This document shows, in pieces, positions 2,310 through 27,630 of a stretch of DNA of 61,903 nt. How positions within the stretch are numbered: the first letter of the stretch is position 1; each line of letters opens with the position of its first letter. Both the position numbers and the translations under genes were made by a program. Source of the stretch: Aestuariivita sp. (lineage in GTDB: Bacteria > Pseudomonadota > Alphaproteobacteria > Rhodobacterales > Rhodobacteraceae); contig JAPORV010000439.1 of assembly GCA_026710055.1 (NCBI GenBank), positions 1 to 61,903 of the forward strand. Direction: 5' to 3'. The notes below the pieces were generated by a model, which saw nothing but the letters and a program-made list of their open reading frames with translations, searched no databases and was not told where the DNA came from.

Positions 2310-5300
2310 AGGGGAGTAAACGAAAGCGATATGGGAGTGCTTTGACGCACTGGCTAGTCGACACCATCACGAGTCCTGTGGTGTATATGCCTGGCATTGT
2401 TCTGATCGCCACGTTGATGTTGTTTATCATTAACGCGGAAGTCTTTCGCGCTCAGCTGTATTCGGCGCAATGGTATGATCTTTATTTCAGCTTAAGCTGT
2501 TTAGCTCCAGCGGCCTGTAGTCATGTGATGGCCTATCACAGTGTCAGCAAGTCATTATGGTGGTGGGCTTTATGGTTACCCGGACTTGTCTGGTATTGGA
2601 TGCGGCCTTGGGTGGGTCACGATGGTTTAGAACTCTACTGGATGCGTCTGGATTACATCTGGGGTCATACGAAAGCACTCTTCTGGGCGAGTTGGTTCAA
2701 TCGACCCTTGCCTTCAGGCTCGCTGTCGACCGTTTTGAGTGTCTTTCTTATTGCTACAGCCATGTTAGCCTGTGCGGCTCGCCCTGTCCTGGCCTTATCA
2801 CATCACTATCGATCTGCGACTGATCCCAAAAGCGAAACAGGGAGTGGGACGGTCGAGGGCTTACCACAAGCACGATGGGCAGACATCAGCGAAATCAAGC
2901 ACCACTTTAGCCATAAAGGCGGCATTGTATTAGGGGAACTGACTGATCCAATTGACACCACGCCCGATTTTGATCCGGCAGATCCTCTCAGCTGGAAACA
3001 ACAAGGGAAAGGTCGGTTGATTACCATGGATCCAAATCGCGGCAACGGACATGTGGTGGTGATCACAGCATCTGCTGGCGGGAAGACCGCGGGGATTATT
3101 GTTCCCAATATTCTGCATTATGCCGGGCCGTTGGTTGTGATTGACCCCAAAGGCGATCTTTACGCCCGTACGAAAGATGCGCGTGAAGCCATGGGATATA
3201 CAGCCCGTGTGATTAATGCGGAGAATGGCTTTGATCCTTTCAAGCTTGTGGCACCGCTCGCGGCGAGCACGCCATCGGTTTATCTGACAATGGCCAAGAC
3301 GCTCATGCCGCTATCAGCGCGGAGTTCGGATATTTCAGAGTATTTTCACGAAATGTCGTGCTCGCTTTTTGCGGCACTCATGGCTTATTTTATTGATCAA
3401 AACAGTTCGAATGTCGCGAGAGATATTTCGCGTTTTATTAATCAATCGAGGGACGACGTTATTGAGGCTGGTACGGAAATTGCATCAAGATATCAAATGC
3501 CACTTATTACTGATGAAATGAAGGGTTTAGCAGCCCTTGATGAACGTACATTTCCCGGTGTTGTCAAAAGTATTGCGAATAAACTCGCTTTTGTGCGCTT
3601 TCCGGATGTGGCCGCCTACGGGAGTTCATCCCACAATGCAGCAGATCATTTACGTGCCCTCGAACCTCGTACAGATATTTTTATTAACATCCCTACGCTA
3701 TCCGTGAAGGATTTTGCCTCTTTTCTCCGTCTGCTCATTGGTGCAATGTACGTGGCCACTGAGTTACTTGAGCATCCGGACAGGCCACAGGCCCGTCGGT
3801 TATTTTTGATTGATGAGGCCCGCGTTCTTGGCGGCATGGATGCTCTTACCAATGTTCGTGATGCCGGGCGATCCATTGGCATGCATCTCATGCTGATTTA
3901 CCAATCGCTGGGACAACTCAAAGAAGCCTGGGGAGGTGAGGCGGGCGCGGATGCGTGGCTTGATAGTTGCGAAGCGCGCGTTGTCGGGGCTGTCGGGGCT
4001 GCGCGTACTGCACAAGACATTGTTACAATGCTAGGGCGGCGAACCATCGAAACACGCACGCGGGGAACATCATCATCGAGCAAGGTAACAGGTTTATTTG
4101 CGGGCTCCGTCTCGTCAAGCGCATCAACGCAGCTGCGCGAGGTGTCCCTGATGTCCGCGGCTACGCTTGGTCGGTTACCCGCACATGGTTCTGTGATTTT
4201 TACGCGGCGCACACATCCTATTCTCGGCACTAAGGCATTGTATTTTACGCGAAAGGACATGGCTGATCATGTTAAATCGCCGGAGGATGTAACCAAGGAA
4301 TTAGATGTTACAAAACGGCGCGAGAAAGTAATAAACGCGCTGAAAGAGACGAAAAACAAAAAAGCAAACGCCACGCCCAAGACGACAACAAGTGACATAG
4401 CGGACATCACAGCACCCAATGGTCGCAAGGTTGCATCAGATACAGAGGTTCATGAACAAGGTACCGAGGAGAAAATCGAACCGGCTTTATCACCAGTTCC
4501 TACTGAAGCCGCGCCTGTTTCAACCGCGGCGGACATATCGACGACGACATTGGTCTCAAAATTATCTGATATTGATCCCGGCACACTTAACAACATAAAA
4601 TCATTGGTAGTGCAATATCCGGCGCTCTTTCGATCAGACATATTAGACAATATATCGGCAACAATATCACATTCTGATGAACAGGATGCGACAGACCCGA
4701 TGTTAGCACCGCCCGAATCTCTCGCTGACAGTGTGACGATCATTGAACCACCGTCACCGACAGTACAGGACGCTGCAAAGGTCACACCATGTACTGACGA
4801 AGATGAAATCAAGGCTGACATTGAACCGGGTCATGAGTCCTCTGCGGTACCTTCAGGTGATGACATCCGACATGATCAGACAAAGAAAGACCCGGAACAA
4901 TCGTCTCAAACATCCGCCAAAGCCCCGATTAGTGCTTCGGACCTGAGGCCGCTTCTTGAAATGCGGGCGCGCGACCTGTTTGAAAAAACATTCGGGCCGC
5001 TTAAAAAAGAAGGTGCCCATAGTGTGCGCGTGGCCCATGACACATCCATCTCCATGACGTTTGAATCGAATAAATATGGTCAGTGGCATCACCACAAAGC
5101 CGGGTTTGGGGGAGATTTATTTGACTTAGTGGCCATTGGTCTTTGTGGCCGCCCCATTGTTAAAAACGCCGCCCGCCATGACTTTCCACAAGTGCTTCAA
5201 ATGGCCGCCCACTATGTGGGATATCATCAGCACGATCAAACATATCACACATTGACGGCAAAAGCACAACGGGCCCGAATGACCCGAAAAACAGCGCAAG

Positions 5301-6034
5301 CCGCCAGTGAAGCGCAGCGCAAAAAAGACAAGCAGGAACTTATCACGACACTCCAACGCCTCGCCTTACCTCTTCATGATACACCTGCGGAAACCTACTT
5401 GAAGAGCCGCCACATTATGCAATGGCCCGTCAGTGGATTAAACTGGCTTCCGTCACTTGACGATCACCTCTCACCAACACAGAAGACGGGCGTTCTTCAT
5501 GCCCAATATGGCGCCCTGGTTGTCTGGGCTGAGAATGAACATGGCGTGATCACGGGAGGGCAGAGAATACTGCTTAATCCTGATGGCAAGAAAGCCGACG
5601 TGTCGGCATCAAAACCGAGCTTTGGCTCACTGACTCATTCAGCAGGTCGCTTTTTACCTTTTGACGATCAAAAAGACCATCCCCTTGTTGTGGCTGAAGG
5701 GCCGGAAACAGCATTATCCATTTGGCTGACCGCGGGCATTGAAGTGTGGGCAGTTTTTGGTGTTTCCGGGTTTCAGTCCGCGCCGCTTCCGGAAAACAAG
5801 CGAATCATTCTCGCACCTGATCAGGATGACCCGACAAGCGTCGCGGCCGGGACCTTTCGAAAAGCGGCTGAATATCATCAAGCCAATGGGAAAGACATTC
5901 TCATTGCCGTCTGTCCTGAACAATCAGGGAGCAAACGCGACTTTAACGATACGCTCCTTCGCCTTGGCATCGAGCCGGTTCGTGATGCCCTGAAGAAGGC
6001 ATGTCCGTTAAGCGATTTTTATCAGGATACGTAA
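2306..6034 (+). CDS. traG: Type IV coupling protein TraG/VirD4 fused through a low-complexity linker to a C-terminal primase-like (Toprim) domain
   Basis: 1242 aa with N-terminal TM segments. T4CP motifs are present: ASAGGKTAGIIVPNIL (Walker A-like), VVIDPKGDLY, LFLIDEARVLG (Walker B) and LIYQSLGQL. After a Ser/Thr/Pro/Asp-rich linker, roughly the last 360 aa contain GGDLFDL and VVAEGPETALSIW...ILAPDQDD...DFNDT (Toprim-like acidic motifs). This region is paralogous to an internal TraA segment. Confidence 0.85.
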   Translation: MKGSKRKRYGSALTHWLVDTITSPVVYMPGIVLIATLMLFIINAEVFRAQLYSAQWYDLYFSLSCLAPAACSHVMAYHSVSKSLWWWALWLPGLVWYWMRPWVGHDGLELYWMRLDYIWGHTKALFWASWFNRPLPSGSLSTVLSVFLIATAMLACAARPVLALSHHYRSATDPKSETGSGTVEGLPQARWADISEIKHHFSHKGGIVLGELTDPIDTTPDFDPADPLSWKQQGKGRLITMDPNRGNGHVVVITASAGGKTAGIIVPNILHYAGPLVVIDPKGDLYARTKDAREAMGYTARVINAENGFDPFKLVAPLAASTPSVYLTMAKTLMPLSARSSDISEYFHEMSCSLFAALMAYFIDQNSSNVARDISRFINQSRDDVIEAGTEIASRYQMPLITDEMKGLAALDERTFPGVVKSIANKLAFVRFPDVAAYGSSSHNAADHLRALEPRTDIFINIPTLSVKDFASFLRLLIGAMYVATELLEHPDRPQARRLFLIDEARVLGGMDALTNVRDAGRSIGMHLMLIYQSLGQLKEAWGGEAGADAWLDSCEARVVGAVGAARTAQDIVTMLGRRTIETRTRGTSSSSKVTGLFAGSVSSSASTQLREVSLMSAATLGRLPAHGSVIFTRRTHPILGTKALYFTRKDMADHVKSPEDVTKELDVTKRREKVINALKETKNKKANATPKTTTSDIADITAPNGRKVASDTEVHEQGTEEKIEPALSPVPTEAAPVSTAADISTTTLVSKLSDIDPGTLNNIKSLVVQYPALFRSDILDNISATISHSDEQDATDPMLAPPESLADSVTIIEPPSPTVQDAAKVTPCTDEDEIKADIEPGHESSAVPSGDDIRHDQTKKDPEQSSQTSAKAPISASDLRPLLEMRARDLFEKTFGPLKKEGAHSVRVAHDTSISMTFESNKYGQWHHHKAGFGGDLFDLVAIGLCGRPIVKNAARHDFPQVLQMAAHYVGYHQHDQTYHTLTAKAQRARMTRKTAQAASEAQRKKDKQELITTLQRLALPLHDTPAETYLKSRHIMQWPVSGLNWLPSLDDHLSPTQKTGVLHAQYGALVVWAENEHGVITGGQRILLNPDGKKADVSASKPSFGSLTHSAGRFLPFDDQKDHPLVVAEGPETALSIWLTAGIEVWAVFGVSGFQSAPLPENKRIILAPDQDDPTSVAAGTFRKAAEYHQANGKDILIAVCPEQSGSKRDFNDTLLRLGIEPVRDALKKACPLSDFYQDT

Positions 6035-6960: not shown

Positions 6961-7629
6961 ATGACCACGGCAACTCATGTTCGAAATAGTCAGCATCACG
7001 ACACCTTAGAGCACCAAAAAAAGGGCCTTGAGACGGAGATAAAGCGTGTTCGCCGAAAGGAAGAAAAACGTCTTATTGCGGCGGCAGAAAAAGCAGGTTT
7101 TTTTGAGGTTCGTATTCCGTCAACACGTCTGATTGCGATGATTGAGGCGGAAAAAGCCGCCGTCTCGTTCAAGCTCTCGACCATTGTAAAACTCAAGCAA
7201 AATCTGAACAGTTTATCACATGCCAAGCGTAAAATTGATACCCGTCGCAAAATCATTTTAGGCAGTTTTGTTGTGGCGCAATGCCGGCATAAACCTGACA
7301 TTCACGACGAAATTGCCCGTGATATCAAAGAGTATTTGAGCCACCACCCGAACCAGAAACGTGCGGGTGACCATTTGGCCGTCCTGTCGGCCTTTTTGGA
7401 TGACCCGCATGACCAAGACGCACAAGCGCCCAAAACGCCCGATCAGCTCAACAACGAGCGCACGCATCGTCATGTCCTGCTGGGCACATGGCTGTTGGAA
7501 CGCCGGACACTCAATCCAACGGTATCCTGGCTGATTCAAACAGAACTGAAGGGGTTTTTAGCCCAGGACCAAAAAGCCGATGGCTACCAGGAATGGCTAG
7601 CGGATGTGTTAGAGTTCGAGCCCCTGTGA
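6961..7629 (+). CDS. TraD-like relaxosome accessory protein
   Basis: 222 aa with a charged coiled-coil N-terminus. The motif KIDTRRKIILGSFVVAQ resembles the DTRRKI-LG core of Ti-type TraD proteins. The gene is convergent with traA and overlaps its 3' end by 21 nt. Confidence 0.45.
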   Translation: MTTATHVRNSQHHDTLEHQKKGLETEIKRVRRKEEKRLIAAAEKAGFFEVRIPSTRLIAMIEAEKAAVSFKLSTIVKLKQNLNSLSHAKRKIDTRRKIILGSFVVAQCRHKPDIHDEIARDIKEYLSHHPNQKRAGDHLAVLSAFLDDPHDQDAQAPKTPDQLNNERTHRHVLLGTWLLERRTLNPTVSWLIQTELKGFLAQDQKADGYQEWLADVLEFEPL

Positions 7630-10600
7630 TCGAGTGCGAGCGCGTTTTGGATGTAACTGCCTGGCCAGCTGCTTTACCGCCGGCGTCCAGGCCGCAAAAC
7701 CATAGCGTGACCCGCGCGTCAGACGCTTCAAGCCATCGGCTATTGCCCTGCCCTGCCCGTCATCAGAAGTCGAATGCGCAAAGGCCATGATTTCCCGATG
7801 CGTGAATGACCGAAAGACCCGCTTTAACATCGCCCGTGCGGTCTGTTCATCTTTGACCTTAGTAATCGCAGGAATATCCATGAGAAGTTGTGTCCGCTCT
7901 TGCATAAAGGCTTTTGCAGAAGGCAGTGATCCCTGCTTGAAGACATCGCGGAGCACCTGACCAAGCGCGTCATCGCCTGATCCTTTTTCCACACTGTAGA
8001 TCACGTGGGCCGCCGCTCTTTCCATCGCTGTTGGATGGAGTTTTGATTTCGCCACTACCTTGACGACTTCAGGCACGCGACGGTCATATTCCTCCTTAAC
8101 GCTATTGTGCTGGAATTCGAGAGGATGCTGTAAATTGACCGGCCGGGGACCTTCGACCGCCATAAAGATATCCTCATTAAATGACTGCGCGAGCGGACCG
8201 CGCGGGTCTGTGGCCACAAGTTCCCTCGCGAGCGTTCGCTTCGCATCAAAAATCACGCGATCTCGCGCCAATGTGTGACAGAGGCTGTTCACCTTGGCCC
8301 TGTCCACTTCGGAAAGAACCTCTGCTTGAGGCAGTAACGTTGCAATCTCGCCTACCAAATCGCACTGATGAATCGGATGGTGTGCATCTATCCGCTCACT
8401 AATGGCCACTGCAAGTTGTAATGCCTGTTGAGGGGAATGTGGCTCTCTCTGGTTAATGGCGGTATCGTCCATCTCTTTCACGTCATTCTCTCGGCCTGCG
8501 ATCCGGGTTCTTGTCATATGCTCCCCAAATCGCTGGAGGGCTCGCTCAAAGATATCTGCTACCGTGTCTTCTCCCAAGGCCTGTGCTGCACTGGCTCCTC
8601 GTGCGAGATACCGCGCAATCGCCTGCGTCTCGCTGTTCCCACCCTGCCCGGCTGAAGAACCCACCACCGACCGTGCATGATCATCCGCGGCTCTGGACAA
8701 TCGTGAGGGCACCTGCCGTAAGAGCTTTCGCCAGGCACGGGGCTGACTGACGCGACGGACATAGTGTTCTAAAGCGATCCGATCTTGTGCTGTCACGCGA
8801 CAGTTATGATCTGTCTCCCACGCCGAGACGGCCCCCATGACTTCTGCCAGGACCTGTTGCGTCACATGGGATGGCGGAGATGGCTCGGTCACTGTACGAC
8901 GGAAACCCACTATGGCCCCCAAACGCCCGAAAGCCGCTGCCCAGCCTGCGGTGCGATCACCGACTTGCGCATCACGTCCCCGACCCTGTTGCAGAGCCTG
9001 TACGGCTGCCCGCGCCCCTTGCGTAACATCAAAGCCATAATCCAGGACACTTTCGGCGCGGCCATTCCGACGATGAATGCGCTGAAGAACTTCTTCCATC
9101 CGCTGATCCGATGATGGGACAATCACTTTCAACTGCTCTTGATGTGCAGCGATACCGGCCGCAAACACTTGCCGTGTCATTCCAGGGCTGGCCAGAAGAT
9201 GAACGCTCTTTCGTACTTGAGCGCCCTCACCATGGATGGTGCCTGCAAAAGCGAATGTCCACTGGGGTAATGTGTCATGCTGCCGGGCGGGAATCACCAC
9301 CTCACGCGATGACTGCCCATCCCGTGCGGTGACCTGCAAGCGGAGCGCATCCGTCCTGGCATCAAACCCCATGACCTCCGCATGATCACCCACCATAATA
9401 CGTTGCGCATGCCATGCAGGCGTTTGCTGCCGTGGGGGTACCCACGCTGTCCCCGCTATAAACCGAAGGCGATCGCCGACTTTGAGGTCCTTAATCGCAT
9501 CATGCCGCGCGCGCGGTCGCTTTTGACGTTCCGGTAAGATATCATCAAGCGCCGTCCGAATGGCGTTGGTCACGGCGATGGCATCCGCCCGGCTCCAGGT
9601 GAGGGCGATTTTATCCGTCGATGGATCGGTGATGTAACTGTGCGCCATCGCCGTGATGGCTTGACGGGCATTTGTCCCGGCGACCAACGCTTCATGGTCG
9701 CGTAAATCAGATATTGCCGCATCGGCCATTGCGCCGCCATTCAACACGTGGCTGAGAACGTCTGCCCGCCAGGGAGCACGCACTTGATCATGTCCTATTG
9801 TCAGTGATCCCACGCGCATATCCAACGCGCGCATGATCGGTCCTGCCCCCAGCGGCTGTTGCTCATCACCGCCGAGCATCGCCACCAATTTCGCCCCTGA
9901 TTGATCCACTCGCGTCAGAAGGGTTGTCACGTCAGTGCCCGCAAGCCGCGTGGCATCATCCAAAATCACTACTGTATTGGCTGTCAGCACAGGATCAGTC
10001 CTGGAGGCGTCTGATGCCGGGCCTGTGAGTGTCAGAAACCGCCGCATTGTCATGGGACGCGATACACCTGCCGTCTTCAGCGCGGTACATCCACTTCCTG
10101 TGGGCGCGACCGTCACGACATTCCACCCGGCTTGTGCATGCAAATGCGCTAAGTCCGACGCAATATGTGTCTTGCCCGATCCTGCGTCCCCCCGAACCAG
10201 CCGTAAGCGCGTCGGGGTCATGCCCCACACAAGCGCCTGGCGGTGCGCATCCGTGTTTTGAAGGTCAACACGCTGCTTTAATTGCCAATCGTTGCGTATG
10301 ATCGCATCAAAATCTGCCGATGGTGCTGTCGGCGACACGGCTGATACCGCCAGCTGAGTCCCCAGGTCAACTGCCCGCACGTCACGATTGACCTGCGTTT
10401 TGGTACTGTACACCGGTACACCGTTCTGGTCGCACTCGCTGAGCATGACAACATCTTTATGCGCAAGCGCTTGAGCGAACAATCGCAGGAAGGTCTCAGG
10501 ATCAGTCACCACCCGGGCGAGTCGTTCTGCAATATCATCTGCCCGAATGACAGAAGAGCGCTGCAGGAGATCGTCAACCACTTGTGTGGGGTCCGACAGA

Positions 10601-13600
10601 TACCAACGGTCATGTTCAGACACATCATCGGGCACAAGGGGTGCTGCGGGGTCAAAACGCGCTGCCATAAGCCCCGCAAGACGTTCAGCCACTGCCATCG
10701 CATGCGAATCTCCGACAAAAGCTGAGAGCCGTTGAGAGCCGTCGTTATGTCCTGTCAAGGCCATCCAGTCCGTGCGTTGCCCGACATCATCCGTCGTCAG
10801 CGCCGGCACATACCGGCGAGACGATGTTTTGTCGACGAGATGCTCCAGATCATCGGGCGCCATATCAAGACTGCCGGGTGCCTGCCCCAGACGGATCAGA
10901 TCGGCCACACATGTCGCATGGCCCACACGGCCATAGACCGACAGAGTGTCACGATGCCGGCTCATCGCTACATAGAGGGCATGACGGTGCATTCGGCGAT
11001 GCGCCAAAACAAACACATCGTCCGCCGAGAGCCCTTGCGACTTATGAATGGTCGCAGCATACCCGTAATCCAGATTCATCCACTCGTGTGAATGTAACAA
11101 TGTAATCTCATCATGGCCATCAAAGCGCACATCAAGACGGTCATCATGGGTGGCCACGACGGTCCCGAAGCTGGATGTAGGAATGCCCAGGGATGTCAAT
11201 GCCGCAGTCGCAATCACACGGTCTCCGACGGCGAGCAGGCGATCTGTCGTCAATGGCTGTGGCATGCCATCGTGATCAATCAATGTCCGAATGATGGTGC
11301 CGTACTGACGTTCCGTCCTCGGGTCAAAAACGCGGCGTTCTGAATCTGTATTCTGATGACCAGCAGCGATTGCCCGTAAGGCTTCTGCTTTTGTCAACTG
11401 GCGAATATGATCATTCAAAGCGGCCACATCGCGGTTGGAATAGCCGAGTGCAATGCGGCTTTTCACGTTGTTCTCATCGCCTTCTTCTGTCGTCATACTC
11501 TTTCCCGCCGCGACATAATCACGCGCTAAAGCACTGATGGGATCGGCTAAAACCTCTGAGGTTAACTTCAAACGCCCCGACGCCTCGTAATAGGCAATGG
11601 CATCAGCGATGTTTTTACCACCGCGCGCCAGCTGTCCTGTGGCCAGTTGATCAAAGATGTTCTGTTGCCGTATGACATTATCAATCACGACACTGCCACC
11701 GCTGGCCTGCTCTGCTAATGACCATCCCGGCAAATCCGACACCGGCTGAAGCTGATCAGGATCCCCCACTGTAATCAACTTCCCCCCTAACGCCCACACG
11801 CGGGCTTGAAGGCGGCTCCATTGACCCGCGCCCACCATGCCCGCTTCATCCATGATAAACACAAACGGCTCTGTGGGCACTTCACCGCGCGCCCACCGTG
11901 CTTCCCACATGGCCAACGTGTGCGCCTGTACGCCGCGCAGACCGCGCAGTTCGGCCGTCGCTTTCCCCGATGGTGCGCCCGCCAACACTGTCACACCCCG
12001 TGCCCGCCATTCCGATGCCACGGCCTTTAGCGTAAAGGTTTTGCCTGTGCCCGCTTTTCCCGTCACCATCGTCAGACGCGTCCCGTCCAACATTGCATCC
12101 GCTGCCTCACGTTGCGAGGCATTCAGCGCATCCAAAGCTTTCGGCCGCAAGACCGGGCCGTCCCCCGGCGTAAAATGCGCCGTCGATAATTGAACAGCCG
12201 CGTCGCCAATCTGCAAAAGCTGCTCAGCGCGCGCCATGGTCATATATTGTGGTACACCATCAGGGGTGAGTTGCGAGAGCTTAACAAGTTCTGACGATGT
12301 GAGCACTTGCCGCGCCATCGATGTCACGTCACATTCTGACAGACGATACTCCGTTTTCTCCCGTAACGCCTGACGAACATCGACTTCAGTAAAAACACCT
12401 TGTCGTGCCGCCAGAAGCATTAGAATATGCGCGGGATGATCCTGCAAGAACATCCGGTTCGCTTTTTTTAAGGTCACATCATTCAGTCTGATCTTTGGAA
12501 GTGACGAGACCGCTGCGAGATCAATCGCCGTCGACTCCTCGTCACGATCATCCGATGGAGCGACAAGGAGGGGCGGATCATGTCGTGGCATGTCGTTGTT
12601 CGCGGCGCGATGTGCCGCGATTGACAGTGTTTTTTGCGGATTAAATCCATAATCCATTGCGGCGCGTGGGAGACGCTCTCGCCGGCTGATGGCATTCAGA
12701 ACGTCATAAAGCTGATCGTCATCCGCCGTAACACCCACCATTACATGTGTACGCGCTATCGCCACACCCGCTGCGAGCACCTCGCGATCCATTGTCTGAT
12801 TTGCTAATAAATGCACACGGTCATGCCGACGCCCTGCACTCGCCATGATTGTCGAGGCAAACGCAAAACACCACGTCGGTAGCGGACCATCATTCGGCAC
12901 AAGAATATCGCGCGGATCATCACCGTGCGGACCGGTCACTGTCAGTTTGATCATGCCATTTTCGTCACCCACCACCGTGGCGAGATCGCCGCGATTGATG
13001 CGCGAAGAGTCCTGTGAAGAGGGATCTGCCGTCAGCGCATGGCCCGCACTCAAAAACCGAAGGCGATCATGCGGCTTTAATCCCTTGCAGGCGCCATGTT
13101 CAGGACTGTCAAATGAACGTCGTTCGGGGTCTGATATATCCAACCCCGTGCGGATGGCCACCGTTAAGGCATCCGCATCCGCACGGCTCCAGGCCACCGC
13201 TAATTTGTCATGGCTCCTATCGGCAATATAGGATGTCGCCGTATGAATAACAGCGTCATTCCGTGCTCCCGCCGCCACAATGAGACCGCTATTCACCGCA
13301 TCTTGTAAACCGTTAAACACTTCTTGTGCTGAACACTCCGAATGCAGACAAGCGGCAAGATGCTGTACATCTGCGTGATGAGCACCATGGTGACCATTAA
13401 GACGAGACGATGACGGTAAAGGAGCGGGATCATGGTGCTGACGCGGGTCATCACGCAAGCGCTCTCCCAAACGCTGAAAGACAGGACCTGCGATCGCGGG
13501 TCGGCGATGTGGGTTGACCATCGCAATCAACCGCGATCCTTCAGCCTCAATGCGGGCGAGTACAATATCGGCCATCTTCACACCCAACCCATGCGCGTCG

Positions 13601-16600
13601 TCGAGAATGACCGTCTGTGGTGCCTTAGGATGAGCATTGAGCGAAAGAGGCTGTGACAAATAGGTTGCCAACGTGAGTGCCTCAACGCCTTCAGCCATCA
13701 ATGCCTGTCGACCCGCTTCTGTTGGACTGACAGCGATCACACAGCCGGGCGCTTGTTCAAGGGCGCCTGCAAGTCTTGCAGCCAATCGGGTTTTGCCGGA
13801 CCCGGTGCCACCTTCAATAATATGTAAATCACCACGTGACGGGTTGTTTGGCGATGGCGATCCATCTAACAAGGTGTGAAGAACATGGCGTTGATCCTGG
13901 TCTAATGCGCCTGCAAACTCATCAACATCAATGACTTGTGCATCTAAAAGATGCGGCGTTGATCGCATGGCTAGCGCGAGTCCGCGATCCATCGCGACAA
14001 TCTCGGCAGACAGGTGAGACTGCGTTGTATAAACGCGGGCTTCCGTATCGCCAGGTCGTCCTGATGCTCTCGGCAAATACACAAGATCCTGATGCGACAT
14101 CGCATGAACAAACAACCGCACAAACGTATCAGGATCACGCACCTGCCGCGCCAGCACACCAGCCACTTCTTCAGCAAAGAACACACCCTGTCGAAGAACA
14201 AGATCATCAATGACTCGTTGAGGTTCTCGCGTGTAATCCGCCGTTGTGCCGAAATCAATGTCGGCCAATAACGGATCATTATCCGCATGATCTGCCCCGA
14301 GCAACCCTGCCACTCGCGCCATGACAGACATTAAATACCGATCCTGCGTCATCTTAACGTCGGCTTGTTGTTGCGTTCGTCCGATCCAATCAGAGCGTGA
14401 TAAGACATGATCAGGAGCCGGTAGCGCCACCATCGAGTGATCAGCAACACGGCGTATCTCCTTTGATGGTGCGCTACGGCGCCCTGCCAACTGTATGAGA
14501 TCCTCGATGCTCTCGCAGTGATCCTCCTGTCCATAGACCTGCACATCATGACAATGGCGTGTGAGCGCCACATTGATGCCATACCGATTCATTGAACCAT
14601 GTAACAGCACAAAGGCCTGATCAACCGTCATGCCTTGCGCTTTATGAACGGTCGCTGCATAGCCATGCGTAAAGTAAGGAAACGCGACAGGGTCAATATC
14701 CACATGCTCACCCGAACCGTCCATTTGAAGGGTGATCTGATCAGGCCGAAGAGCGACCACAGTGCCAAAGGATGAGCGGGGGAGATGGGCGTCAGAATAC
14801 GGCATCGTCAACATCACACGATCGCCCACGCCCACGCGAACAAGCTGTTCAGTGCGTGTCGTCACTGTCATCCCATCTGAATCAACAGAACGATTAATAA
14901 TATCAACGGGAAATTCCTGCATTGTGGTGGCATCAACAAAGCCTTGCTTTATCGCTTCAGCTTGAATCGCTTGATTGAGCCTGTCCACATCCGTGTTGGT
15001 GGCTGCCATCGCCAGGCGCGATTCAAAATCAACGATGCCGTCCTCGCGGCGAACGCCATTCACAAAGTCTCGGGCAATAGACTCGATTGGATTGAGCATG
15101 CCAAAGGACAACGCGCCTTTATCGGCATAATGGTGAATCGCTGCCGCAATGCTTGAGTGATCACCTTTTGCTAATGCCGTGGTCGCCGCGCGATCTCCCG
15201 CGTCGTTTTGCCGCTGCACAATGTTTATCACAGACACTACACCGCCGGCGTCACGTACGGATCGTTCGGCTTCTTTCCAGCCGGAAATCTCGTTAATGGG
15301 CTGCAATTGCTCCGGATCGCCAATGGCAATGAGCTTGCCCCCCATCGCCCCGATTTTGGATTGAATCCGCGCCCACTGGCCACTCCCGACCATGCCGGCT
15401 TCATCCATGATAAAGATAAAACCGGCTCCTTCTGACCGCGCTACAGGAACCTGCCCACGCGCCCACCGGCTTTCCCATGCCGAAAGCGTGGCGACCTCAA
15501 CGCCGTCCAGTGTGGAGAGTGCCTGCGTGGCTTTGCCGGACGGGGCACCTGCCAGAACCTCAACACCACGATCCCGCCACACGCGGGCGACTTCCGTGAG
15601 CGTGAATGTTTTGCCGGTTCCAGCATGACCTGTCACGAGGGTTAAGCGCTCTGTATTCAGCATGGCTTCTGCCGCCGCACGTTGACCGTCATTGAGATCA
15701 CGTGACAACCACGGCCGAACATCTCGCGCATGATCAAGAGCATGGCGAACAGCGTCCGGCCCTGCCCGTTGATCCGTGTCATTCAGATCTTTCTTGGATC
15801 CCATCGCCTCCGGTGCCGTCGCGACTTTTATATTACAGCCCCGGCTCACATGATGTGCAAGCGCTTTGCGAAACGCACAGCCGGCAGGACTTGTCGGGGC
15901 ATCACGATCAGGCGCCAATATCACTTCACGGTCTGTTGGGATGGGTGCTGATGTCCACCCCGATACACCAAAAACCGCCCAGGTTTCGTACCCGGTCGCT
16001 TGCCAGATCGAGAGCGCGCTTTCCGGCCCTTCGGCAATCACCAACGGCGTGTGTGCCCGCTCCACTGAAACCGCTGGAAACCGGGCGACGGATCCACTGA
16101 TTTGACCAAACGACGGCTTCCGCACATCACGATCTGGCTTTGTCCCATCAGGATTGACAAGAATACGTTGCCCGCCTGTGATCATGCCCTTTTCATTATA
16201 TGCCCACACGATCAGCGCGTCATCGTCTGATCCAATCAAACCCCGCGGGAATGTCTGTTGTCCTTGCCCGGTCATCCAACTAAGGCCTGTTGCAGGAACC
16301 GTTTGAATACCGCGCGACTTTAAATACGTCGCCGCGGAACACGCCGGAACATGCGAAGAACCTATCTGTGCGACATCATCGCTCGTGTTCAATTCTGTCG
16401 CCAAAGCCTGAACATCTTTGACAAGCGCATCCCGTCGCCTGCGTTCCTGTTTTTCCTCTTCCCGAGCGTTACGTTCCCGTTGGATGCGTCGACGTTCCAA
16501 CTGCTCCATCGCCTGTTTGGTGGGCTGCAACTCCCCTCGACTCATGCCACAAAACTGTATCGCGTGTTCCATCACACGCGGGAAGTCTTGCCGTGCGGAC

Positions 16601-18276
16601 TCGAGCCCCAGAAAATGGGTTGCAATAAGATCAAACAAATCGCCCCCTAACCCCGCAGAGTGATCCCGCCACAGTCCGCGCTTGGCGCCATGAACCTGCA
16701 TCGCTATCGCCATGTTATCTTTTGCCCGCCATTCTGTACCACTTTTACGGACAGGTGCGCCAAAAGCGAGGCGAAAGAGATTTTCCGCCTGTGCATCCAG
16801 TGCCGCGCGCACCACCGCCGCAGACGGACGTGCATAACGCGATTGAGCCACGATATCCGGCGTGTGTGATGTTGATGACATCGCACTCAAGTTCTCACTA
16901 GTCGGCGTTGAATTCACCCAGGTGTCCGCGTGCGTGTAAGCAACGACATCCACATGTATAGGCCCGCTCCCCATCTCCAACCCATCCGGTATGGGGCCTT
17001 TGGTGGCGTGCGAAACAGATGCGGTCGATCCGTCTTTCTCATTCTTCCCCACTTGCGTTCCGTCCAGCGGTGTCGAATGATTAAGGTTAACCGTTTGCCC
17101 TTTTCCGATTCGGATGATCTTCTCATCAGCCGCCCAGGTGTCTTCCAGTTGGCTCCCTTGCAATCGCGCGGCATCAATCGCCACCTGCTGAATAAGTCCC
17201 GCTTTACCAACGGTGATATAGATTTTTTCAGGACCGTCTTTTCCGATTACCGGCAGTAAACGATCTGACGACATGGCGCGGTCGGTCAGGTCAGCCAATT
17301 CGTCTTTGTCATTCTCAAGAGACAGATCAAGTCGCTTGGCAAAGGCCGCCTCAACATGAGTCCGACCAAAAGTCGCACGGTCAATTTGAACCATCGTCAG
17401 GATATGTTCAGGATCATCCCTGAGCATTTGCTGGTTCTTTCGACGGGTCTCTTCATACCGTTCGCGATCCCGTTGAACATCACCCTTTGCATCCGCCTGC
17501 GGCGTATACTGAAGGTTCCAGTTTTCCGGTTTGATCTTGGGTTCAACCCCGAGTTCTTCTTGCTGTGCCGCCAATGTTCTATGGTCAATCCGCTCGTCAA
17601 AACCCTCGCGCTCCAGCATGATATTGGCGTGCTTTGTCCATGTCGCCCGTTGTTCACGCAAAACACTCACACTATTCCATTCTCGTGCTTTATACTGATC
17701 CCACGATAAGTCATTCAGCCGGCGCAGCGTCACCATAATATGCGCGTGCGGATTGCCTTTTCCCGTATCATGAAGAACCCAATCAGCGACCATACCGTGA
17801 GATGTAAAGGCCTCTTTGACATACCCTTGAACCAGTTCAATATGGCATTCTCTGCTCAGCATTGCCGGCAACGCCAGGGTGATGCTTCGCGCCATTTGAG
17901 CACGATTTTTAAATTTGTTGAAGGTGTCTTCGCCGGTATCAACCGACTGCCAAAGACGTTCGGATAGCTCGGCCCATGTGTTTAATTCGAGTTCCGTTTT
18001 GGTGAAATTATCATCATGTAGATGATGGTCATAGAGAAGATCAGCATATGTCTGCTGAAAGGCGGATGGCCCAAACGCATTGACCGCCCATGCCGGTGCG
18101 TTTGCCGGTACAGCGATTTCCGCATGCGTTAATTCGGGTAATTTTGAGCTGAAGTCTTTTGTGGCTTCCCCTGCCCGATTCATCATTTTCGTCGCATGAC
18201 GATACGCAGCCGCAGTCAGCGCAGATTGGTTTTTTCCGCGCGAAATCACATCAACATGATGATGCGGGCTTGACAT
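7609..18276 (-). CDS. traA: Giant multidomain conjugative relaxase TraA (MOBQ MobA/MobL relaxase + primase-like Toprim domain + duplicated RecD-like helicase modules + unknown C-terminal domain)
   Basis: This is a 3555-aa uninterrupted ORF. The N-terminus has VISRGKNQSALTAAAYRH (catalytic Tyr region) and NPHAHIMVT (His motif). Around aa 490-850 lie GGDLFDL and VIAEGPESALSIW...ILAPDRDA...DLNDT (Toprim-like). Four Walker A sites occur, with lysines near aa 889 (GHAGTGKTF), 1495 (GGTGSGKTR), 2079 (GKAGTGKTF) and 2702 (GDAGSGKTH). The helicase motif YAATVHKAQGMT / YAATIHKSQGLS appears twice. Confidence 0.9.
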   Translation of the reverse strand: MSSPHHHVDVISRGKNQSALTAAAYRHATKMMNRAGEATKDFSSKLPELTHAEIAVPANAPAWAVNAFGPSAFQQTYADLLYDHHLHDDNFTKTELELNTWAELSERLWQSVDTGEDTFNKFKNRAQMARSITLALPAMLSRECHIELVQGYVKEAFTSHGMVADWVLHDTGKGNPHAHIMVTLRRLNDLSWDQYKAREWNSVSVLREQRATWTKHANIMLEREGFDERIDHRTLAAQQEELGVEPKIKPENWNLQYTPQADAKGDVQRDRERYEETRRKNQQMLRDDPEHILTMVQIDRATFGRTHVEAAFAKRLDLSLENDKDELADLTDRAMSSDRLLPVIGKDGPEKIYITVGKAGLIQQVAIDAARLQGSQLEDTWAADEKIIRIGKGQTVNLNHSTPLDGTQVGKNEKDGSTASVSHATKGPIPDGLEMGSGPIHVDVVAYTHADTWVNSTPTSENLSAMSSTSHTPDIVAQSRYARPSAAVVRAALDAQAENLFRLAFGAPVRKSGTEWRAKDNMAIAMQVHGAKRGLWRDHSAGLGGDLFDLIATHFLGLESARQDFPRVMEHAIQFCGMSRGELQPTKQAMEQLERRRIQRERNAREEEKQERRRRDALVKDVQALATELNTSDDVAQIGSSHVPACSAATYLKSRGIQTVPATGLSWMTGQGQQTFPRGLIGSDDDALIVWAYNEKGMITGGQRILVNPDGTKPDRDVRKPSFGQISGSVARFPAVSVERAHTPLVIAEGPESALSIWQATGYETWAVFGVSGWTSAPIPTDREVILAPDRDAPTSPAGCAFRKALAHHVSRGCNIKVATAPEAMGSKKDLNDTDQRAGPDAVRHALDHARDVRPWLSRDLNDGQRAAAEAMLNTERLTLVTGHAGTGKTFTLTEVARVWRDRGVEVLAGAPSGKATQALSTLDGVEVATLSAWESRWARGQVPVARSEGAGFIFIMDEAGMVGSGQWARIQSKIGAMGGKLIAIGDPEQLQPINEISGWKEAERSVRDAGGVVSVINIVQRQNDAGDRAATTALAKGDHSSIAAAIHHYADKGALSFGMLNPIESIARDFVNGVRREDGIVDFESRLAMAATNTDVDRLNQAIQAEAIKQGFVDATTMQEFPVDIINRSVDSDGMTVTTRTEQLVRVGVGDRVMLTMPYSDAHLPRSSFGTVVALRPDQITLQMDGSGEHVDIDPVAFPYFTHGYAATVHKAQGMTVDQAFVLLHGSMNRYGINVALTRHCHDVQVYGQEDHCESIEDLIQLAGRRSAPSKEIRRVADHSMVALPAPDHVLSRSDWIGRTQQQADVKMTQDRYLMSVMARVAGLLGADHADNDPLLADIDFGTTADYTREPQRVIDDLVLRQGVFFAEEVAGVLARQVRDPDTFVRLFVHAMSHQDLVYLPRASGRPGDTEARVYTTQSHLSAEIVAMDRGLALAMRSTPHLLDAQVIDVDEFAGALDQDQRHVLHTLLDGSPSPNNPSRGDLHIIEGGTGSGKTRLAARLAGALEQAPGCVIAVSPTEAGRQALMAEGVEALTLATYLSQPLSLNAHPKAPQTVILDDAHGLGVKMADIVLARIEAEGSRLIAMVNPHRRPAIAGPVFQRLGERLRDDPRQHHDPAPLPSSSRLNGHHGAHHADVQHLAACLHSECSAQEVFNGLQDAVNSGLIVAAGARNDAVIHTATSYIADRSHDKLAVAWSRADADALTVAIRTGLDISDPERRSFDSPEHGACKGLKPHDRLRFLSAGHALTADPSSQDSSRINRGDLATVVGDENGMIKLTVTGPHGDDPRDILVPNDGPLPTWCFAFASTIMASAGRRHDRVHLLANQTMDREVLAAGVAIARTHVMVGVTADDDQLYDVLNAISRRERLPRAAMDYGFNPQKTLSIAAHRAANNDMPRHDPPLLVAPSDDRDEESTAIDLAAVSSLPKIRLNDVTLKKANRMFLQDHPAHILMLLAARQGVFTEVDVRQALREKTEYRLSECDVTSMARQVLTSSELVKLSQLTPDGVPQYMTMARAEQLLQIGDAAVQLSTAHFTPGDGPVLRPKALDALNASQREAADAMLDGTRLTMVTGKAGTGKTFTLKAVASEWRARGVTVLAGAPSGKATAELRGLRGVQAHTLAMWEARWARGEVPTEPFVFIMDEAGMVGAGQWSRLQARVWALGGKLITVGDPDQLQPVSDLPGWSLAEQASGGSVVIDNVIRQQNIFDQLATGQLARGGKNIADAIAYYEASGRLKLTSEVLADPISALARDYVAAGKSMTTEEGDENNVKSRIALGYSNRDVAALNDHIRQLTKAEALRAIAAGHQNTDSERRVFDPRTERQYGTIIRTLIDHDGMPQPLTTDRLLAVGDRVIATAALTSLGIPTSSFGTVVATHDDRLDVRFDGHDEITLLHSHEWMNLDYGYAATIHKSQGLSADDVFVLAHRRMHRHALYVAMSRHRDTLSVYGRVGHATCVADLIRLGQAPGSLDMAPDDLEHLVDKTSSRRYVPALTTDDVGQRTDWMALTGHNDGSQRLSAFVGDSHAMAVAERLAGLMAARFDPAAPLVPDDVSEHDRWYLSDPTQVVDDLLQRSSVIRADDIAERLARVVTDPETFLRLFAQALAHKDVVMLSECDQNGVPVYSTKTQVNRDVRAVDLGTQLAVSAVSPTAPSADFDAIIRNDWQLKQRVDLQNTDAHRQALVWGMTPTRLRLVRGDAGSGKTHIASDLAHLHAQAGWNVVTVAPTGSGCTALKTAGVSRPMTMRRFLTLTGPASDASRTDPVLTANTVVILDDATRLAGTDVTTLLTRVDQSGAKLVAMLGGDEQQPLGAGPIMRALDMRVGSLTIGHDQVRAPWRADVLSHVLNGGAMADAAISDLRDHEALVAGTNARQAITAMAHSYITDPSTDKIALTWSRADAIAVTNAIRTALDDILPERQKRPRARHDAIKDLKVGDRLRFIAGTAWVPPRQQTPAWHAQRIMVGDHAEVMGFDARTDALRLQVTARDGQSSREVVIPARQHDTLPQWTFAFAGTIHGEGAQVRKSVHLLASPGMTRQVFAAGIAAHQEQLKVIVPSSDQRMEEVLQRIHRRNGRAESVLDYGFDVTQGARAAVQALQQGRGRDAQVGDRTAGWAAAFGRLGAIVGFRRTVTEPSPPSHVTQQVLAEVMGAVSAWETDHNCRVTAQDRIALEHYVRRVSQPRAWRKLLRQVPSRLSRAADDHARSVVGSSAGQGGNSETQAIARYLARGASAAQALGEDTVADIFERALQRFGEHMTRTRIAGRENDVKEMDDTAINQREPHSPQQALQLAVAISERIDAHHPIHQCDLVGEIATLLPQAEVLSEVDRAKVNSLCHTLARDRVIFDAKRTLARELVATDPRGPLAQSFNEDIFMAVEGPRPVNLQHPLEFQHNSVKEEYDRRVPEVVKVVAKSKLHPTAMERAAAHVIYSVEKGSGDDALGQVLRDVFKQGSLPSAKAFMQERTQLLMDIPAITKVKDEQTARAMLKRVFRSFTHREIMAFAHSTSDDGQGRAIADGLKRLTRGSRYGFAAWTPAVKQLARQLHPKRARTRSQGLEL

Positions 18277-18347
18277 TGATTTGTTAGGGGTGACTCACAA
18301 TTTGGAAAATGGATGACTTGCCGTTAGCATACAGATGACAAAAAAAA

Positions 18348-18416
18348 TCGCAAGATTTTTTTTGTATAATCGTGCCATCCGAGATTTTTTTGGCCTATCC
18401 TGCCAAAAAAATCTCG
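18348..18416. promoter_or_regulatory. Candidate oriT (two inverted repeats flanking a TATAATCGTGCC nic-like core)
   Basis: IR1 is acaaaaaaaatc/gattttttttgt (18348..18359 and 18364..18375). It is followed immediately by ataatcgtgccatc. IR2 is a perfect 15-bp repeat, cgagatttttttggc/gccaaaaaaatctcg (18380..18394 and 18402..18416). The site lies just upstream of traA, the usual oriT position for MOBQ/Ti-type systems. Confidence 0.4.
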
Positions 18417-19337: not shown

Positions 19338-19913
19338 CTAGGCGGTCTGCTGTTTGTTCAGAGTTCGGTAGACGGTTGGGCGTGATACCGAGAAGATCTC
19401 GGCGAGATCGCTGATCGTGTAGTTCCCGCTATCATGCATGCGCCAAAGTTCCTTCCTTTGTTTTTCGGACAGTTTCGGGGATTTCCCCCGGAGCTTTCCC
19501 TTGGCTTTGGCAATGGCCATGCCCTCACGGGTGCGCATCCGGATCAGGTCAGCCTCGAACTCTGCGAAGGTGGCGACGATGTTGAAAAACATCCGGCCCA
19601 TCGGGTCAGAGGGGTCGTGGATGGTTGGGCCGAGGGCGAGCGTCACGCCCCTCCGTTCGAGTTCCTGGGCAATGTCACGTGCATCTGGAACGGAACGAGC
19701 CAGACGGTCCAGTTTTGACACGACGAGCGTGTCGCCTTCGCGTAGCGCCGCAAGCGCCTGGGCGAGACCTGGGCGATCTCTTCCGGTTCCAGTCAGTCCG
19801 TGGTCTGTGTAAATTCGGTCCTCGGTCACACCCAGTTCGAATAGGGCCTTCCGCTGTGCCTCAAGGTCCTGAGCGTGGGTCGAGCAACGGGCATATCCGA
19901 TTTTGATAGTCAT
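19338..19913 (-). CDS. Serine recombinase (resolvase/invertase family)
   Basis: ORF 19338..19955, with the likely start at MTIKIGYARCST (ATG 19913). The motifs YARCSTHAQDL and DRLARS, plus a C-terminal HTH (ISDLAEIFSVSRPTVYR), are typical of small serine recombinases. Confidence 0.9.
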   Translation of the reverse strand: MTIKIGYARCSTHAQDLEAQRKALFELGVTEDRIYTDHGLTGTGRDRPGLAQALAALREGDTLVVSKLDRLARSVPDARDIAQELERRGVTLALGPTIHDPSDPMGRMFFNIVATFAEFEADLIRMRTREGMAIAKAKGKLRGKSPKLSEKQRKELWRMHDSGNYTISDLAEIFSVSRPTVYRTLNKQQTA

Positions 19914-20364
19914 AGCGGGACTGTACGAAAAGGCTCCCCTCATTGCAACATTCATCGTACCAATCTATTGAGACATGTTTCGGCCTTGTTTTGCAGAGTG
20001 GATGTTTTAGCCGGAAGCTGTCCGTTGAGCGTTCCACTATCGGACAACCCAAAACAACGCTCATACTCTCCCCCGGTACCTGCAGTCGTACCGAAATCCC
20101 GAAGGTATCTCTGATGAAAAACTCCTTATTACCTAACGGCAAGACCGCATTTTACCAAAAACGCCTATCGTCCACCTCACTTGCGCTGTGCCGGCGGCTG
20201 CTTTAGTCTCCCTTTGAGAGACACCGATCGATGTTGAGCTCTGACAATATGACAAACCGTCCCTCGTCATCAGAGCTTCTACTCAACCTTTTAGCACAAC
20301 ACTAGGGTCCGGTGAGAGAGGCTTAGTGGTGCACGTCACTGTTAAATTGGAAAAGGACATATTT

Positions 20365-21006
20365 ATGACTGACGCATCTTCAAACCAATCCCATGACGAT
20401 ACAAAAGATTTAAAACTGTTTTGTGATTTATGCGAATGGGCTTATCAATATTGGGCAATGTATTATGCGCTGTTTCATGCAATGCCGGATCGTTTGAAGC
20501 AACACAATGTCTCATTAAGAGAATTTTTAAAAACCCCGGAAGGTGCTTGTTTTAATCGTTTAAACAAGGCCATTCAGGATTATTGCATTCTAGAAATTGC
20601 TAAATTACATGATAAAAATACCAGAAGTTTAACAGTTCATCATATTCAAAAAAAACAGTTCTGGAACACAGAAGATCGACAGGAAATCAATAATTTGATT
20701 TCAGAATTAGAAAAGTTTTACGAATTGTTAAAAAATGCGCGTAACAAAATCCTGGCACATAACGATCTTGCTACATATCGAGATAATCTGGTTCTTGGCA
20801 ATTTTTCAGACGGAAAAGACGAAGTTTATTTCGAGAACCTAGCGGAATTATGCACGATCGTTTGGAGGAAAGTTCCCAATAAAGGTGCATGCCAGAGAAG
20901 TTTTACATTTACAAAATCCGGCCCTGCCAATAATTTATTAAATTCGGTGACCGAAGGACAAGCACTGGGCGAATTGATCGTCAAAGCATGGCGTAATAAG
21001 GTTTAA
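20365..21006 (+). CDS. HEPN-like (AbiU2-like) protein, possible abortive-infection/RNase effector
   Basis: ORF 20326..21006, with the likely start at ATG 20365. It contains ARNKILAHND, which fits the R-x4-6-H HEPN motif. The region is AT-rich and next to a recombinase. A decayed paralog lies at 28718..29010. Confidence 0.4.
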   Translation: MTDASSNQSHDDTKDLKLFCDLCEWAYQYWAMYYALFHAMPDRLKQHNVSLREFLKTPEGACFNRLNKAIQDYCILEIAKLHDKNTRSLTVHHIQKKQFWNTEDRQEINNLISELEKFYELLKNARNKILAHNDLATYRDNLVLGNFSDGKDEVYFENLAELCTIVWRKVPNKGACQRSFTFTKSGPANNLLNSVTEGQALGELIVKAWRNKV

Positions 21007-21070
21007 CTGCGTTGTAGCGGATGACAGGCGAGTGCCGGTGGCACAGAATGGGACTCAAAAGCGCTTGACG

Positions 21071-21450: not shown

Positions 21451-21599
21451 TTGAGAATTTGAAGGCGGGGAGCGTTAGGTTCTCCGTCAATTTTTTCTTT
21501 TTTTTATCGGCTGTCTCAATTGTTGACAGTTGGGGCAGTTGGCTTCATACAAGTATATAAGGGATATGAAAGGCCAATTTAATCAATGAAGAGTTCAAT

Positions 21600-21896: not shown

Positions 21897-22108
21897 TTTA
21901 AGTTATCGATTTTGTAGGATTAGCTTGTATAGTTAAGTATATAATTCCCAAAATTAAGTCGGCAAAATATGTTCTTATAAAATTACCAACTTGGTTGCGC
22001 TTGAATTCCCAAAATAATTGAATAAAATCAGTCTGCTAAGCCTGAAGGAGTGCAGCAACGGTCACCCCTTTTTCTTGAAAACGTTATCTTTGATATGCTG
22101 TTGGGATG

Positions 22109-27584: not shown

Positions 27585-27630
27585 TCCTCCAGAACACGAA
27601 TTGTGACATAATTGCGATCCATCATTTTAT

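Follow-up and report, generated by a model that had tools for sequence, protein, structure and literature searches.

Organization of the relaxase locus

The sequence analyzed here is contig JAPORV010000439.1 of Aestuariivita sp. (Rhodobacteraceae; assembly GCA_026710055.1), and the window refers to its whole length of 61,903 nucleotides. Our subject is an open reading frame (ORF) on the minus strand at 7609-18276, which encodes 3555 amino acids (aa) plus a stop codon and carries a relaxase, a primase-like module, two double-helicase modules and a C-terminal tail in one frame. A sequence-only reading of the window had singled out this ORF as a TraA-type relaxase containing a large internal duplication. 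The frame is open throughout, as that reading had it, no other long ORF lies within 7609-18276, and the alignment of orthologues begins at residue 1. The parts of the protein, in the order in which they are translated, are listed below.

17557-18228, minus strand: HUH relaxase domain of the MobA/MobL (MOBQ) type, aa 17-240 (PF03389, E 8.6e-40)
17077-17469, minus strand: LK, an N-domain of ~100-130 aa following the relaxase, aa 270-400, homologous to J
15727-16872, minus strand: primase-like block, aa 469-850, made up of a DUF7146-like region and Toprim_3 (aa 745-841)
14467-15720, minus strand: unit 1, a RecD2/TraA-type SF1B helicase, aa 853-1270, with K889 and motifs I, II, III and VI intact (AAA_30)
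13840-14466, minus strand: L1, a linker, aa 1271-1479, whose C-terminal half is the N-domain for unit 2
12637-13839, minus strand: unit 2, a diverged RecD-like unit, aa 1480-1880, with GSGKTR (K1495) and LDDA (AAA_30, E 3.8e-11)
12151-12504, minus strand: J, the second copy of the LK N-domain, aa 1925-2042, and the true start of module 2
10837-12150, minus strand: unit 3, the second intact SF1B helicase, aa 2043-2480, with K2079 and the best AAA_30 and UvrD_C_2 stretches
10210-10836, minus strand: L2, a linker, aa 2481-2689, paralogue of L1
9028-10209, minus strand: unit 4, a degenerate RecD-like unit, aa 2690-3083, with K2702 and with LDDA intact here (AAA_30, E 8.5e-12)
7612-9027, minus strand: C-terminal tail, aa 3084-3555 (472 aa), predicted to be all-helical

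The duplicated double-helicase module

When the two halves of the protein were compared with BLASTP, a single collinear match was obtained between aa 853-1879 and aa 2043-3083, with 36.6% identity over 1084 columns (E 6.5e-163). On this comparison the similarity of modules 1 and 2 is far beyond chance, and the internal duplication of a double-helicase module that had been proposed by eye is borne out. The duplicated cores correspond to nt 15720-12637 and nt 12150-9028, and the likeness between them at the DNA level is confined to 388 nt at 65% identity and 74 nt at 73% identity. Because the copies are too diverged in both protein and DNA for a mis-assembly, the alignments indicate that a ~1100-aa module was duplicated long ago, in tandem and in frame, and that the repeat is no assembly artefact. 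The relaxase gene was also found, 100% identical at the DNA level, in two further ENA assemblies produced by different pipelines.

The four P-loops had been placed correctly. Their lysines are K889, K1495, K2079 and K2702, within Walker A motifs that start at 883 (GHAGTGKT), 1489 (GGTGSGKT), 2073 (GKAGTGKT) and 2696 (GDAGSGKT), so that units 1 and 3 are 1190 aa apart and units 2 and 4 are 1207 aa apart, the repeating spacing on which the duplication was first argued. Together the four AAA_30 units score 333 bits, and the search with profile hidden Markov models for MobA_MobL, AAA_30, UvrD_C_2 and Toprim that had been proposed as a check produced matches to all four. Units 1 and 3 contain FIMDEAGM (955 and 2140), IGDPEQLQP (985) or VGDPDQLQP (2170), and YAATVHKAQG (1206) or YAATIHKSQG (2406); they are intact as claimed, except that unit 3 reads VGDP rather than IGDP. 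Units 2 and 4 keep Walker A and B with a degenerate last motif (FAFASTIMAS at 1804 and FAFAGTIHG at 3008, respectively), but the suggestion that they are equivalent vestigial copies does not hold, as unit 2 has gained conserved replacement motifs.

The linkers take part in the duplication as well. The quoted L1/L2 pair aligns as the sequence-only reading described, and the C-terminal halves, L1c and L2c, matched in HHalign with 100% probability (E 7.5e-41). That the linker following the relaxase recurs before unit 3 was likewise recovered, LK matching J in BLASTP with an E value of 2e-5 and in HHalign, over eight orthologues, with 99.7% probability (E 2.4e-26). Weaker HHalign matches, at 80-86% probability and E ~1e-5, relate LK or J to the C-terminal halves of L1 and L2. 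The TraA_Ti profile match in module 2 begins at aa 1935, inside J, and unit 2 aligns with unit 3 in BLASTP over 422 columns (E 3.5e-8). No Pfam match was found in L1 or in the segment between unit 2 and J (aa 1881-2050). From these alignments the basic repeat is an N-domain followed by a RecD-like core, present in four copies, and the duplicated module comprises two of these repeats, the first with an intact helicase and the second with a degenerate one. Two modules are therefore present as first described, with their boundaries refined to the cores given above and with the start of the duplicated unit moved upstream of the earlier boundary, to the ~100-aa N-domain represented by LK and J.

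Relaxase, primase-like and tail regions

The relaxase domain scored 137.3 bits against PF03389 (MobA_MobL), for which the cut-off is 26.7. It contains a catalytic tyrosine, Tyr25, in AAAYRHA and a three-histidine motif, HDTGKGNPHAH, at aa 169-179, and both are kept in eight orthologues. The whole protein scored 848.5 bits against TIGR02768 (TraA_Ti; cut-off 590.45), a score that sums five stretches and is inflated by the repeated helicases, while the TraA subfamily models PRK13826 and PRK13889 scored 490 bits, under their cut-offs of 1317 and 1015. The initial assignment to the MobA/MobL relaxases of the Ti TraA-type, within MOBQ, is upheld by the first two of these models.

The earlier domain map had missed Toprim_3 (aa 745-841) and the wider primase-like block around it, which begins near aa 469 and extends to about aa 850. 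Toprim_3 matched at 35.3 bits against a cut-off of 27.2, and the DUF7146 match, at 21 bits, is below its cut-off of 27. Motifs AEGPESAL, APDRD and DLND, corresponding to the Toprim glutamate, DxD and DLND, are invariant across the eight orthologues, and with 64% mean identity the block is the best-conserved segment of the relaxase protein. Judged by its position, it is an insertion in copy 1, between the N-domain of that copy and its helicase. In two relatives (P0015 and P0032) the corresponding block, a MID segment with Toprim, does not precede the first helicase unit but maps inside it, in the order unit 1 fragment, MID, Toprim and rest of the helicase; the insertion point of the primase module may differ within the family.

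The tail, which had been put at ~350 aa, measures 472 aa (nt 9027-7612). No Pfam match was found in it. Two tail segments, T1 and T2, recur across the family, including in relatives with a single module, and the tail ends in a conserved arginine-rich motif, HPxRxRxRxxG. Its AlphaFold2 model is unreliable, with a predicted local distance difference test score (pLDDT) of 47. At two loci of a Paracoccaceae metagenome-assembled genome (MAG), on records labelled chromosomes 2 and 1 (L008, 9662-14830; L010, 9662-14794), stand-alone genes of ~1700 aa with the layout L2, unit 4, T1 and T2 were found, and no relaxase or intact helicase is encoded in the 9.6 kb upstream of them. The degenerate unit and tail may work as an independent protein at these loci.

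Predicted fold of module 2

The structure of module 2 was modelled with AlphaFold2 from a 25-sequence alignment. The model, with a mean pLDDT of 79, contains a pair of RecA-type lobes, and a beta-rich domain accompanies each; the orientation of the lobes to one another is uncertain (predicted template modelling score 0.53, root-mean-square deviation 33 Å). The best match in the Protein Data Bank was TraI of F/R1 (cryo-electron microscopy entry 5N8O), with an E value of 2e-25 over 1241 aligned columns that include both lobes. RecD2, RecD, Pif1 and Dda followed (RecD2 3GPL, TMt 0.65, E 2.4e-19), and the Helitron transposase 7LCC ranked 34. The model predicts that units 3 and 4 fold as RecD2-like lobes. 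The resemblance to TraI that had been noticed in the sequence finds support at the level of predicted fold, although the order of the two units within the module is reversed.

Conservation and history of the modules

Motifs I, II, III and VI of units 1 and 3 are invariant in eight of eight orthologues, and the two units are equally conserved, with mean identities of 55% and 57% and 28% invariant columns in each. The full set of SF1B motifs is lacking in units 2 and 4, in which motifs III and VI have been replaced. In unit 2, GKTR and DDA are both present in all eight orthologues, and GKTR in 12 of 13 when five genomic loci are added, the exception being L009, where GSGRTR has lost the lysine. 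Its motif III has become a conserved NPxRRP and its motif VI FASTIxAxAGRRH. Unit 4 keeps the histidine of TIH(G), and Walker A or B has been lost in several orthologues. The conservation of the duplicated arrangement across relatives, with all SF1B motifs kept in units 1 and 3, argues for selection on the duplication, as had been suggested from the open frame.

Neighbor joining trees with 100 bootstraps were produced from the units; these are distance-based trees of moderate support and not maximum likelihood trees. Within the main group of sequences the unit-1 clade (bootstrap 50), unit-3 clade (85) and unit-2 clade (95) are separate, so the duplication predates the divergence of that group, while unit 4 joins the degenerate unit of the one-module proteins. 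On these trees module 2 has stayed nearer to the ancestral state, the derived copy being unit 2. The second helicase is fully intact in the basal relatives P0029 and P0020, and this suggests, from the sequences compared, a series in which one of two intact helicases degenerated before the module was duplicated.

Other members of the family have patterns of their own. The three modules of one protein (L014) cluster together beside the one-module L011 (bootstrap 84 and 100), and the modules of P0013/P0014 and of P0020/P0025/P0027 form separate patterns again. The trees point to several independent amplifications of the module, a count that is provisional, as gene conversion could mimic it. Gene conversion does occur: in L006 the intact units group with each other, and the degenerate ones have remained orthologous to those of other genomes.

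Distribution of the family and number of modules

The family was collected by an exhaustive HMMER search with module 1 followed by segment mapping, and by a scan of species-representative genomes; a word-index search with aa 1401-2050 gave one match, the index missing this family. Nine further representatives (P0003-P0008, P0010, P0012 and P0157, the last within the P0004 cluster) have the same collinear layout, are 3461-4009 aa long and are 41-47% identical to the window protein. The layout was also found at seven genomic loci (L002-L006, L009 and L012; 3595-4412 aa). Hosts of the family include Ruegeria, Roseobacter, Tateyamaria and Paracoccaceae MAGs, and the loci from the genome scan come from Ruegeria atlantica, a Ruegeria MAG, several Paracoccaceae MAGs and one MAG binned as Thermoanaerobaculia, some of them on records labelled chromosome. 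One cluster of the relaxase is represented on 56 contigs of cultured Roseobacter sp. HKCC isolates, and fragmented homologue calls were seen in low-coverage contigs such as L001. In most collinear relatives unit 1 is the best match of unit 1 and unit 3 that of unit 3. More than 15 independent genomes, with 40-55% identity, have preserved the full fusion in one ORF, and the nearest distinct homologue of the window protein is only ~44% identical, at which substitutions are saturated for estimates of dN/dS.

Among the best 150 cluster representatives, 20 are at least 2600 aa long. The survey of homologue lengths that had been called for shows that the architecture recurs, yet it is annotated only generically, the source labels being limited to 'AAA family ATPase', 'putative MobA/MobL protein' and 'mobilization protein A'. 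The window protein had been presented as a one-off; it is a member of a wider family of at least ~10 clusters at 50% identity, and its rarity was overstated. A megablast search of PLSDB with the relaxase gene gave no match, and tblastn against PLSDB returned only one-helicase TraA genes of ~26-28% identity, with no plasmid covering at least 80% of the query; the architecture is thus absent from the plasmids of PLSDB.

The number of modules varies. One-module relatives, in which the relaxase is followed by J, an intact unit, a linker, unit 4 and the tail, are ~1500-2060 aa long and abundant in metagenomes. P0013 and the KLH11 protein have two modules without Toprim. Three modules, with six Walker A sites, were found at two loci of a Rhizobiaceae MAG (L013, 2-14005, at least 4668 aa; L014, 5540-21157, at least 5202 aa); the two loci are paralogues with 86% identity, and within each protein any module shares 60-73% identity with the others. 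As judged from segment mapping, the module occurs once, twice or three times in this family of marine Alphaproteobacteria, which is in the databases but effectively unannotated. In the literature outside subscription-only papers we found no description of multi-helicase MOBQ relaxases. A separate protein, P0035 (3352 aa), has four AAA_30 units and TraI_middle domains on a PF03432 (MobA/VirD2-like) relaxase, so that multiplication of helicases is not confined to MobA/MobL relaxases.

Genomic surroundings

The remaining features of the window that we recognized are the following.

2306-6034, plus strand: VirD4/TraG-type coupling protein, 1242 aa (T4SS-DNA_transf, E 7.5e-51; TraG-D_C; DUF7146; Toprim_3)
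6961-7629, plus strand: ORF of 222 aa without a family match, convergent with the relaxase gene and overlapping its 3' end by 21 nt
18338-18416: candidate origin of transfer (oriT) in the AT-rich leader, with two perfect inverted repeats, one of 15 nt at 18380-18416 and the other of 12 nt at 18338-18365, that lie 60-140 nt before the start codon
19338-28425: segment of lower GC content beside the relaxase leader, with a serine resolvase, HEPN AbiU2, an Eco57I-type methyltransferase, an HNH protein, an 862-aa protein with two HATPase_c domains, and DUF5131
30167-33870, minus strand: complete repABC operon
36060-38285, minus strand: class II-type ribonucleotide reductase in two adjacent ORFs (372 and 368 aa), split at about profile position 312/316, in the barrel domain
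38295-39911, minus strand: solitary divergent gene for a RepC-like protein of 538 aa, ~4.4 kb from the operon on its repA side
40359-60361, plus strand: type IVb pilus-like cluster, with a TcpQ/LysM lipoprotein, secretin, T2SSE ATPase, GspF/ComGB-like platform protein, PilS-type pilin and prepilin peptidase

The coupling protein, encoded 1.6 kb from the relaxase gene, is likely to be the partner of the relaxase. Its C-terminal region (aa ~859-1232; nt ~4880-6000) is 41% identical to aa 469-850 of the relaxase (E 7e-88), and by this alignment one plasmid carries the same primase-like module on both its coupling protein and its relaxase. In the 10 kb around related loci the module was seen on the relaxase alone, and no type IV secretion system (T4SS) genes were present in the 10-kb flanks of homologues L002 and L004. 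Homologues of the 222-aa ORF lie just downstream of relaxase-family genes at L008, L010 and L013, but on the same strand.

The segment at 19338-28425 looks like a defence or accessory island. The first RepC, that of the repABC operon, is only ~40-45% identical to those of the nearest Rhodobacterales plasmids in PLSDB. The division of the ribonucleotide reductase may represent a frameshift, a pseudogene or a genuine split gene. Six ORFs of 222-824 aa without a Pfam match are interspersed among the genes of the pilus-like cluster; the five that were also scanned against NCBIfam gave no match there.

Proposed function and alternative explanations

We think it probable that this single polypeptide is a MOBQ relaxase of the Ti TraA type that has been enlarged by a Toprim primase module, by the tandem duplication of a double-helicase module and by a helical tail with an arginine-rich end, and that it works in a TraI-like manner. 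The functional part of this account, as distinct from the domains, the duplication and its age, the conservation, the distribution and the fold, is drawn by analogy with MobA, Ti TraA and F TraI. Tyr25 would nick oriT, probably in the AT-rich leader, and stay joined to the 5' end. Units 1 and 3 would translocate 5' to 3' and so unwind the plasmid, while units 2 and 4 would extend the channel that binds single-stranded DNA, a role comparable to that of the vestigial helicase in TraI; unit 2 has probably kept the ability to bind nucleotide. The Toprim module would prime synthesis of the complementary strand, and through its tail and arginine-rich end the protein would dock on the neighbouring coupling protein of the VirD4 type. 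With two motor modules placed one after the other, the translocase would be more processive or more firmly clamped. Sister lineages carry one, two or three modules, and this suggests that copy number is a selected, tunable property.

Several observations weigh against this account. A T4SS substrate of 390 kDa would have about double the size of TraI and, to our knowledge, is without precedent. The order of intact then degenerate unit is the reverse of that in TraI, and the analogy with a clamp on single-stranded DNA may not carry over directly. The nic core of the RSF1010/Ti type, TGCGCCCT, is not present near the relaxase gene or in its leader, and neither Pfam nor NCBIfam searches recognized a VirB4-type mating-pair-formation gene in the 62-kb window. 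The decay of the unit 4 P-loop in P0008, P0006, L003 and L005 indicates relaxed constraint on part of module 2. Lastly, the two re-assemblies in which the identical gene was found may share one source sample.

A further-reaching version, which we regard as doubtful and put forward only tentatively, is that module copy number is adaptive and has been repeatedly tuned in a distinct class of 'multi-motor' MOBQ relaxase-primases of marine Alphaproteobacteria, that proteins of 390-570 kDa act, and are translocated whole, as single units, and that unit 2 has been neofunctionalised into a nucleotide-dependent regulatory or clamp domain. If whole translocation were true, these would be the largest T4SS substrates known and would test how many helicase lobes a relaxase needs.

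A different possibility is that the ORF is a polyprotein or nested gene from which internal starts or proteolysis release a relaxase-primase part and helicase-only parts as units of ordinary size. T4SS substrates must unfold, for which 390 kDa is awkward; the stand-alone genes for L2, unit 4 and tail at L008 and L010 show such a part on its own; and nested products have precedents in MobA/RepB' of RSF1010 and TraI* of F (for the MobA-linked primase, see PMC12857230). Against it, no peptidase domain was found in the relaxase protein with Pfam or NCBIfam, and the collinear fusion has been kept as one ORF in the more than 15 genomes noted above. We consider it unlikely, and it is compatible with the large MOBQ relaxase that we favor.

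Somewhat less likely still is neutral redundancy on the way to decay, in which one module contributes nothing and the frame has stayed open by chance or for the sake of the tail. Losses of Walker A and/or B in unit 4 of orthologues (such as GPDGGRR, GKI/LSHA and GKRV) would be expected of such decay, and the abundant one-module relatives of ~1500-2060 aa are presumably functional. Yet the modules are 37% identical and both intact helicases nevertheless keep all catalytic motifs in all of the 8-13 orthologues, unit 2 shows new conserved motifs instead of random decay, and two- and three-module forms arose or persisted in several lineages.

It is very improbable that the protein is a Helitron-like enzyme of rolling-circle replication or transposition and not a conjugative relaxase. 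An HUH nuclease with an SF1B helicase is the Helitron layout too, 7LCC appears among the fold matches and mating-pair-formation genes were not recognized in the window; however, the nuclease is MobA/MobL with the MOBQ tyrosine and three histidines, the TraA_Ti equivalog cut-off is exceeded, next to it lies a gene for a VirD4-type coupling protein, the plasmid carries a repABC replication system of its own, and the fold matches to TraI and RecD2 are far stronger. An assembly or annotation artefact, whether a collapsed or expanded repeat or two fused genes, has the unusual length alone and the fragmented calls in low-coverage contigs such as L001 to recommend it, and its probability is close to nil given copies of 37% aa identity with so little DNA likeness, an identical sequence in three assemblies from different pipelines, and the same single-ORF architecture in genomes of isolates as well as in MAG records at chromosome and plasmid level.

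The window gene and its family show that a relaxase helicase pair can multiply in frame to four to six units, together with a primase, and be kept over long divergence. The natural variants with one, two and three modules offer a means to test the role of the degenerate lobe, the processivity of motors in series and the size limit set by the T4SS coupling protein. The 'AAA family ATPase' labels mean that MOB typing and plasmid-mobility surveys of marine Rhodobacterales probably under-annotate the family. These matters are of interest to specialists in conjugation, an interest tempered by the fact that the protein is one member of an existing family with a function that rests on analogy.

Comparison with known systems

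Ti-type TraA proteins (TIGR02768) have one relaxase and one RecD-like helicase, TraA of pTiC58 being ~1100 aa long and rhizobial forms ~1540 aa. The window protein resembles them in its N-terminal MobA/MobL domain with one catalytic tyrosine and three histidines, in the short N-domain that follows, in a RecD-like SF1B helicase with the same motifs, and in its alphaproteobacterial repABC plasmid host. It departs from the TraA architecture of one helicase in about 1000-1550 aa, being three times longer at 3555 aa, with four P-loop units, two of them intact and two diverged, an internal Toprim and a tail of 470 aa.

TraI of F, the structural paradigm, has 1756 aa with one vestigial and one active helicase. 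Like TraI of F/R1 (MOBF), the window protein is predicted to have tandem RecD2-like lobes after the relaxase, one complete and one degenerate, and unit 1 matches the active helicase of TraI in sequence (residues 965-1133). It differs in that the relaxase is MobA/MobL and not TrwC/TraI, the order of the lobes is reversed, unit 2 keeps Walker A and B, and the pair is present twice. The TraI equivalog models scored far under their cut-offs (TIGR02760, 114 bits against 930; PRK13709, 115 against 2212) with matches confined to the helicase region, and by these profiles the window protein is not a MOBF protein.

Very large multidomain proteins of conjugative elements have been described as polyvalent proteins (Iyer et al. 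2017, PMC5512222), and the window protein shares that character. The modules of the window protein are, in contrast, all DNA-processing and its size comes from duplication and not from diverse effectors; no conflict-effector domains (anti-restriction, methylase, peptidase, ART and others) were found in it with Pfam or NCBIfam, whose matches were all to relaxase, Toprim and helicase/P-loop families. In its Toprim_3-type domain, with acidic residues and a D-x-N-D motif, it is similar to the transferred Toprim primases of mobile elements, TraC1 of RP4 and Sog of R64.

Fusion of a MOBQ relaxase to a primase is also seen in MobA-RepB' of RSF1010/R1162, where the primase is thought to act on the transferred strand (PMC12857230); the primase-like module of the window protein is instead of the DnaG/Toprim_3 type, is internal and stands alongside helicases. 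A 2025 review of T4SSs describes relaxases as nucleases to which no more than one helicase region or a primase is joined, and for MOBQ relaxases it gives a helicase and a primase as alternatives (PMC12857230). Unlike that description, the window protein, by its domain content, combines helicase and primase on one MOBQ relaxase, with the helicase pair doubled.

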